A program made the position numbers and the translations under genes. This document shows, in pieces, positions 44,748 to 45,203 of a stretch of DNA of 64,000 bases (its first letter is position 1; each line of letters opens with the position of its first letter). The DNA comes from Escherichia phage vB_Eco_F27. The notes beneath the pieces were generated by a model. The model was not told the origin of the DNA. It was given only the letters and a program-made list of their open reading frames with translations, and ran no database searches. The stretch is from the sequence record OP870146.1, one strand, 5' to 3'.

Positions 44748-45203
44748 TTATTTTAGATCTTCGGCCCAATCTAGTTTTAAGGGTTCTTTGTATTCACGGT
44801 CGAGAATAACCGGAATAGCTACATCACCACTGAATGATAGTTGGCCAACGTTATATGATAACGTTATATGTGGAGTGTAGTCGTCGAAATCATGAGTAGC
44901 ACCTAAAGCTCGTGCATACTGATGACGACATCTAAGATATTCAGAATCAAGAACTAAAACCAGTACAGCGCCGTCGTCAGTTTTCCATACCTCAAAGTGT
45001 CCTGATTCGGCAACAGAATAACTACCACTAGATGTAGTATATGGTATGTTTACACGTGAATAACAAATTGTTGAATGAAGCTTTTCACGTGGTACTGGAT
45101 TAGGAATTCTTAATTTACGCTGGAGGTCTTCCAGCGCATCAAGTGTTAATTCCGAAAATTTAGCTGCGACGTAGAGGCCTTGTGAAAAGTCCTCAAATTT
45201 CAT
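44748..45203 (-). CDS. 57B: 2H phosphoesterase, anti-CBASS Acb1 (gene 57B)
   Basis: 151 aa; two H-x-T/S motifs (LHSTICY, PHITLSY); directly upstream of 57A as in T4. Confidence 0.8.

Follow-up and report, generated by a model that had tools for sequence, protein, structure and literature searches.

We looked at a stretch of 64,000 nucleotides from Escherichia phage vB_Eco_F27 (OP870146.1), hereafter called the window. On its minus strand, gene 57B (44748..45203) encodes a protein of 151 residues, starting with ATG and predicted to be Acb1, an anti-CBASS nuclease of the 2H-phosphoesterase type. A second gene on the same strand, vs.4 (30659..30925), encodes a protein of 88 residues predicted to be Acb2, a helical-hairpin sponge for cyclic dinucleotides. 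Both open reading frames (ORFs) had been reported in a reading made from the sequence only, and both were found at exactly these coordinates and on the minus strand. The window runs from gene 43, encoding the DNA polymerase, into the tail and baseplate genes of a T-even segment. Its first 47.5 kb were colinear with positions ~31,000-80,000 of RB69, except for a few cassette replacements. The regions around both loci showed 97-98% nucleotide identity to Mosigvirus genomes, with dozens of Escherichia and Shigella phages matched. On the basis of this similarity, the window is assigned to an RB69-like T-even phage of the genus Mosigvirus (Tevenvirinae), the taxonomy being read from the deposited genome records. 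In RB69, both vs.4 (NP_861808) and 57B (NP_861847) are annotated at the equivalent positions of the colinear genome, and the records bear no anti-CBASS annotation, the terms used being 'conserved hypothetical' and 'RNA ligase'. The interval between vs.4 and 57B is ~1.5 kb shorter in the window than in RB69, with several cassette replacements.

Directly upstream of acb1 lies gene 57A (45203..45433, minus strand), encoding the tail-fibre assembly chaperone (Pfam PF17594 GP57, E 1e-23), and beyond it gene 1 (45438..46172, minus strand), encoding the dNMP kinase (Pfam PF21448 DNMK, E 3e-96). The gene order 1-57A-57B is conserved and matches the annotation of both T4 and RB69. Since the stop codon of 57A overlaps the start codon of acb1 (TAATG), the two genes are probably translationally coupled. 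Just downstream of acb1, two genes of the internal-head-protein type were found on the minus strand (44357-44668 and 44032-44295; PHROGs 2667 and 7673). T4 possesses ipI downstream of acb1, whereas two differing internal-head-protein genes are present here. In RB69, ipI is located where the second gene (44030-44268) sits, and this second gene has no RB69 counterpart. The two products start with MKTYQEFIAE and MKTFNEFISE, respectively, and we take these N-termini to be similar to the one that targets T4 internal proteins to the capsid. Since IPI* of T4 is injected and counteracts restriction, the two genes downstream of acb1 may, by analogy, be candidates for injected anti-defence functions. 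Each of them is preceded by an early-promoter-like site (TTTACA-17-TAnnAT). T-even early-promoter-like sites (TTTACA-17-TACTAT) were also seen at 44733-44705, directly downstream of acb1, and at 32461-32434, upstream of vs.8. Promoter and terminator scans around acb1 and acb2 gave counts that were not above the shuffled expectation.

At the other locus, a vs.5 homologue (30915..31139, minus strand), recognised from the ORF list, PHROG 1986 and the RB69 and T4 annotation, is located upstream of acb2, with an overlap of 11 nt between its 3' end and the start of acb2. The start codon of vs.4 is an internal ATG (30925) of a longer mechanical ORF (30659-31093). A Shine-Dalgarno-like motif, GAGGAA, stands 7 nt upstream of this ATG, and a 267-nt gene identical in extent is annotated as vs.4 in RB69. 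Directly downstream of acb2, the GTG start of a 69-residue ORF (30450..30659, minus strand; PHROG 2037) overlaps the acb2 stop (TAGTG). This ORF gave no Pfam match, and its annotation in phage moha is 'hypothetical protein'. It occupies the variable vs.3 slot, where RB69 carries ORF117c and T4 carries vs.3, and the window gene differs from both, being unrelated to that of T4. The vs.3 slot is thus a variable cassette adjacent to an anti-defence gene. The order of the neighbours, that is vs.6 (GrcA-like), vs.5, vs.4, the small variable ORF and regB, is T4/RB69-like, the succession vs.6-vs.5-vs.4-regB being that of T4 and RB69.

Other differences from RB69 were observed in the window. A 1,046-bp insertion in nrdD (15159-16204, minus strand) was identified as a group I intron (Rfam Intron_gpI, 73 bits, E 3e-18) with its core at 16003-16234, although it had been missed by the Rfam gathering scan of the whole window. 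The intron carries, after the catalytic core, an ORF of 254 residues (15185-15949) with weak matches to SegE_GIY-YIG and NUMOD1, of the homing-endonuclease type. The ORF of the T4 sunY/nrdD intron likewise follows the catalytic core. The intron is already known: full-length matches at 99.7-99.8% identity were present among the top matches listed, and at least 80% of its length is covered in 43 records. Another segment without equivalent in RB69, 410 bp long (28164-28594, minus strand), separates tk.2 from tk.4, the gene with a macro domain, and it contains two ORFs of 75 residues matching Pfam Phage_zn_bind (PF23895) and DUF7202 (PF23832). In addition, blastn against the colinear part of RB69 left five short segments unmatched (22203-22372, 23754-24065, 32392-32832, 41317-42074 and 42856-42983), which represent cassette-type differences within the hyperplastic regions nrdC, vs-ip and e-tRNA. 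Two genes for tRNAs were located at 42781-42854 and 42958-43029.

Acb1 was the best curated family for the 57B product. The match to the Pfam profile (PF23474) covered positions 1-144 of 144 and reached 197.3 bits (E 1.3e-58), the gathering cut-off being 27 bits. The product also matched PDB 7t26 at E 1.1e-58 (7t26 and 7t27 correspond to the crystallised Acb1 of Erwinia phage FBB1), with 63% identity over 140 residues and a single one-residue gap, and it is 85% identical to T4 gp57B (NP_049750). In T4, gene 57B was found to encode Acb1 by activity-guided fractionation; the protein cleaves 3'3'-cGAMP and counteracts CBASS in vivo (Hobbs et al. 2022). The same study defined the catalytic tetrad (H44/T46/H113/T115), the aromatic residues stacking on the bases (Y12/W74/F107/W147) and the glutamate contacting the adenine (E141). 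The 57B product possesses all nine of these published residues of the active site and the ligand contacts, with a numbering shifted by one. The HxT/HxT tetrad corresponds to H43, T45, H112 and T114 (H44, T46, H113 and T115 in T4 and FBB1), the stacking aromatics to Y11, W73, F106 and W146, and the adenine contact to E140, which is equivalent to the E141 that contacts adenine N6 in the reference protein. The sequence-only reading had called this ORF Acb1 on account of two H-x-T/S motifs. Exactly two H-x-[TS] motifs were indeed found in the protein, H43-S-T45 and H112-I-T114, and they stand at the positions of the catalytic tetrad. Both catalytic histidines, H43 and H112, were retained. Together with the full-length Pfam match and the identity to T4 gp57B, this bears out the assignment of 57B to Acb1.

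The likeness to the two reference enzymes is close. The length is within one residue of that of T4 Acb1, the N-terminus being one residue shorter here, and none of the 22 substitutions relative to the T4 protein falls at a published functional position. The tetrad and the ligand-contact residues are identical to those of T4 Acb1 and also to those of the more distant FBB1 Acb1 (PDB 7T26/7T27). From the 63% identity to the latter, we infer that the 57B product would adopt the fold of 2H phosphoesterases, including a lid at the C-terminus. Compared with T4 57B, 64 codons of acb1 show synonymous differences while only 22 amino-acid changes were counted, which indicates that acb1 is under purifying selection. 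A protein 100% identical to this Acb1 is encoded by other deposited phages, for example E. coli O157 typing phage 6 and ATK48, and homologues were detected in 1,469 of the 50,697 phage records.

A different function could be proposed for 57B, namely that of a 2'-5' RNA ligase or an RNA-repair enzyme belonging to the 2H (LigT-like) superfamily and not of a dedicated anti-CBASS nuclease. Indeed, RefSeq labels RB69 57B and its relatives 'RNA ligase', PHROG 755 bears the same label, and the HxT/HxT motif is common to the whole 2H superfamily. However, the label is a transfer made at the level of the fold, whereas the T4 orthologue was isolated as an enzyme cleaving 3'3'-cGAMP and acts against CBASS in vivo. 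Moreover, the 57B product retains every ligand-specific residue (Y, W, F, W and E), and the family that it matches best among the curated ones, over its full length, is Acb1. An RNA ligase or RNA-repair function is therefore considered very improbable. The 'RNA ligase' annotation of 57B was rejected, since it is superseded by the biochemistry done on the 85%-identical T4 protein. Hence, Acb1 is retained for 57B.

For vs.4, the position of the gene had been the reason to consider it as a candidate for Acb2, and the searches showed that it is more than a positional candidate: its product is a clear homologue. It matched Pfam PF24729 (Acb2_Tad1_hairpin) over positions 1-58 of 58, with 65.7 bits and E 4.4e-18 (cut-off 27 bits), and PHROG 717, the family used to collect Vs.4 homologues by Jenson et al. 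2023, at E 3.6e-28. When similarity to Acb2 was looked for at 30659-30925, it was found at E 9.8e-31 with PDB 7uq2, a chain of the T4 Vs.4 crystal structure. The protein is 67% identical to T4 Vs.4 and 99% identical to RB69 vs.4. T4 Vs.4 is a hexamer that binds three cGAMP molecules with a Kd of ~30 nM; its ligand contacts are Y8, F82, H11, K23, R79 and S74, and its interface residues are L29, F33, A66, A73 and A77 (Jenson et al. 2023). All of them are kept here, the cGAMP pocket as Y9, H12, K24, S74, R79 and F82 (T4 Y8, H11, K23, S74, R79 and F82) and the hexamer interface as L30, F34, A66, A73 and A77 (T4 L29, F33, A66, A73 and A77). Thus, the likeness to T4 Vs.4/Acb2 (PDB 7UQ2) extends from the 267-nt gene and its slot between vs.5 and regB to identical cGAMP-contact and hexamer residues. 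These residues were also invariant in an alignment of 10 homologues, which came from six Straboviridae genera, from a Klebsiella phage that is unclassified and from a Phapecoctavirus.

The Acb2 of Pseudomonas phage PaMx33 (p26; PDB 8H2J, 8H2X and 8IXZ) belongs to the same family and is distant in sequence. It was not reached when Vs.4 alone was searched against the PDB with an E limit of 10, but the profile of the 10-homologue alignment reached it (8h2j, 8ixz) at E 0.0017. In this profile search, Y11 and K26 of PaMx33 Acb2 aligned to Y9 and K24 of Vs.4. As for Acb1, a protein 100% identical to Vs.4 is present in deposited phages (G2285 and mar005P1), and homologues were detected in 1,231 of the 50,697 phage records.

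The conservation of Vs.4 is not uniform along the protein. Residues 1-37 and 70-88 are, respectively, 92% and 90% identical to those of T4, and the nucleotide identity of these flanks is 82-85%, with many synonymous changes. In contrast, the centre (residues 38-69, window 30738-30833) shows only 23% protein identity to T4, with a one-residue deletion, and its nucleotide sequence, 39% identical to that of T4, is essentially unalignable. Among the ten phages, the tip of the hairpin is hypervariable in both sequence and length, even within Mosigvirus. PaMx33 Acb2 possesses a second pocket, dependent on R67 and T74, in which cyclic trinucleotides are bound, and the helix equivalent to the Vs.4 centre lines this pocket (Cao et al.). 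R67 and T74 align to Q61 and Q68 here, which stand in place of D61 and T68 of T4 Acb2. The R67/T74 feature of the broad-spectrum Acb2 subgroup (PaMx33/JBD67 type) is thus absent from Vs.4; it is a trait of the subgroup and does not define the family. T4 Acb2, with its D61 and T68, and CHI14 Acb2 bind neither cA3 nor cAAG, and the helix geometry of T4 Acb2 also closes the trinucleotide pocket (Cao et al.). Since the Arg/Thr pair of PaMx33 is replaced by Q61/Q68, the Vs.4 sponge is probably specific for cyclic dinucleotides, the second pocket being probably absent, as in T4.

Because of the divergent centre, the ligand specificity of the Mosigvirus Vs.4 might have been shifted toward cyclic trinucleotides, 3'cADPR or the avoidance of decoys, in which case the protein would not be the equivalent of T4 Acb2. 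The steep drop in identity between flanks that are at least 90% identical to T4, the hypervariability of the central segment across Straboviridae, the role of the equivalent PaMx33 helix in lining the trinucleotide pocket and the binding of 3'cADPR described in the literature for some Acb2 homologues are all compatible with such a shift. However, the dinucleotide pocket and the hexamer interface are invariant, so that cGAMP binding should persist, and Vs.4 lacks both residues on which cA3 binding depends (Q61 and Q68 stand there). In addition, T4 and CHI14 Acb2 have different centres and the same dinucleotide-only spectrum, suggesting that the constraint on the centre is weak. A shifted specificity is therefore regarded as unlikely. 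We would be equally cautious about the idea that the central hairpin of Straboviridae Acb2 is under diversifying selection that tunes, for example, the avoidance of Panoptes decoys or the binding of extra signals, for which the odds appear low. If it were true, the Mosigvirus-specific vs.4 allele would behave differently from T4 Acb2. A sponge restricted to cyclic dinucleotides, like that of T4, remains the preferred reading for Vs.4.

A further possibility is that acb1, acb2 or both are decaying remnants that have lost their function. Panoptes-type systems are known to select for the loss of acb2 in T4, and this argument contains nothing specific to the genes of the window. On the contrary, both ORFs are intact and full length, both products are 100% identical to proteins of other phage isolates, the divergence of both genes from T4 is dominated by synonymous changes, and the signals for ribosome binding (acb2) or coupling (acb1) are kept. 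Decay is thus held to be exceedingly improbable. No sequence evidence contradicting the identification of Acb1 and Acb2 was found. The direct support obtained here consists of homology, conserved residues, the order of the genes and purifying selection, while the enzymatic and binding activities, as well as the ligand range, are those that we infer from the experiments on the T4, FBB1 and PaMx33 proteins. Altogether, the sequence data indicate that both anti-CBASS genes of T4, acb1 and acb2, very probably have functional orthologues in this phage.

How the two proteins would share the work can be proposed from these residues. Acb1 would act as a metal-independent 2H phosphoesterase, in which the aromatic residues Y11, W73, F106 and W146 would clamp the cyclic oligonucleotide and E140 would read one adenine. 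The H43/T45/H112/T114 tetrad would then carry out the acid-base cleavage of the 3'-5' bond located 3' of adenosine, and the predicted substrates would be adenosine-containing 3'-5' cyclic di- and trinucleotides. As for Acb2, its 88-residue helical hairpins would assemble into a hexamer with three pockets, each made by two protomers (Y9, H12 and K24 with S74, R79 and F82), and these pockets would sequester cyclic dinucleotides without cleaving them. If the sponge is limited to dinucleotides, the adenosine-containing trinucleotide signals (cA3-type) would therefore be left to Acb1. T4 codes for Acb1 as well as for Acb2 and is hence broadly CBASS-evasive (Cao et al.). The sequence-only reading had proposed two layers of anti-CBASS activity for the phage studied here. 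Both genes were identified and their pairing was already published for T4, so this proposal stands, with the refinement that the sponge layer probably concerns cyclic dinucleotides only.

Acb1 and Acb2 are already known in the sense that both families are curated in Pfam, the T4 pairing is published and identical proteins are deposited. The search covered 50,697 deposited phage genomes, and each gene had homologues in >1,200 of them. A search of the literature library found no paper in which RB69 is treated together with Acb1 or Acb2, and in most public records of RB69-like phages both genes are still called 'hypothetical protein' or 'RNA ligase'. The main value of the present result, which is modest, is thus the transfer of the annotation to the RB69-like phages. 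T4 Acb2 is both needed and sufficient for triggering the Panoptes decoy-nucleotide system and, by analogy, a phage with a conserved Acb2 pocket may share this liability. The carriage of Acb2 predicts resistance to cGAMP-type CBASS and a possible sensitivity to Panoptes-type decoys, which is relevant to the choice of therapeutic phages.
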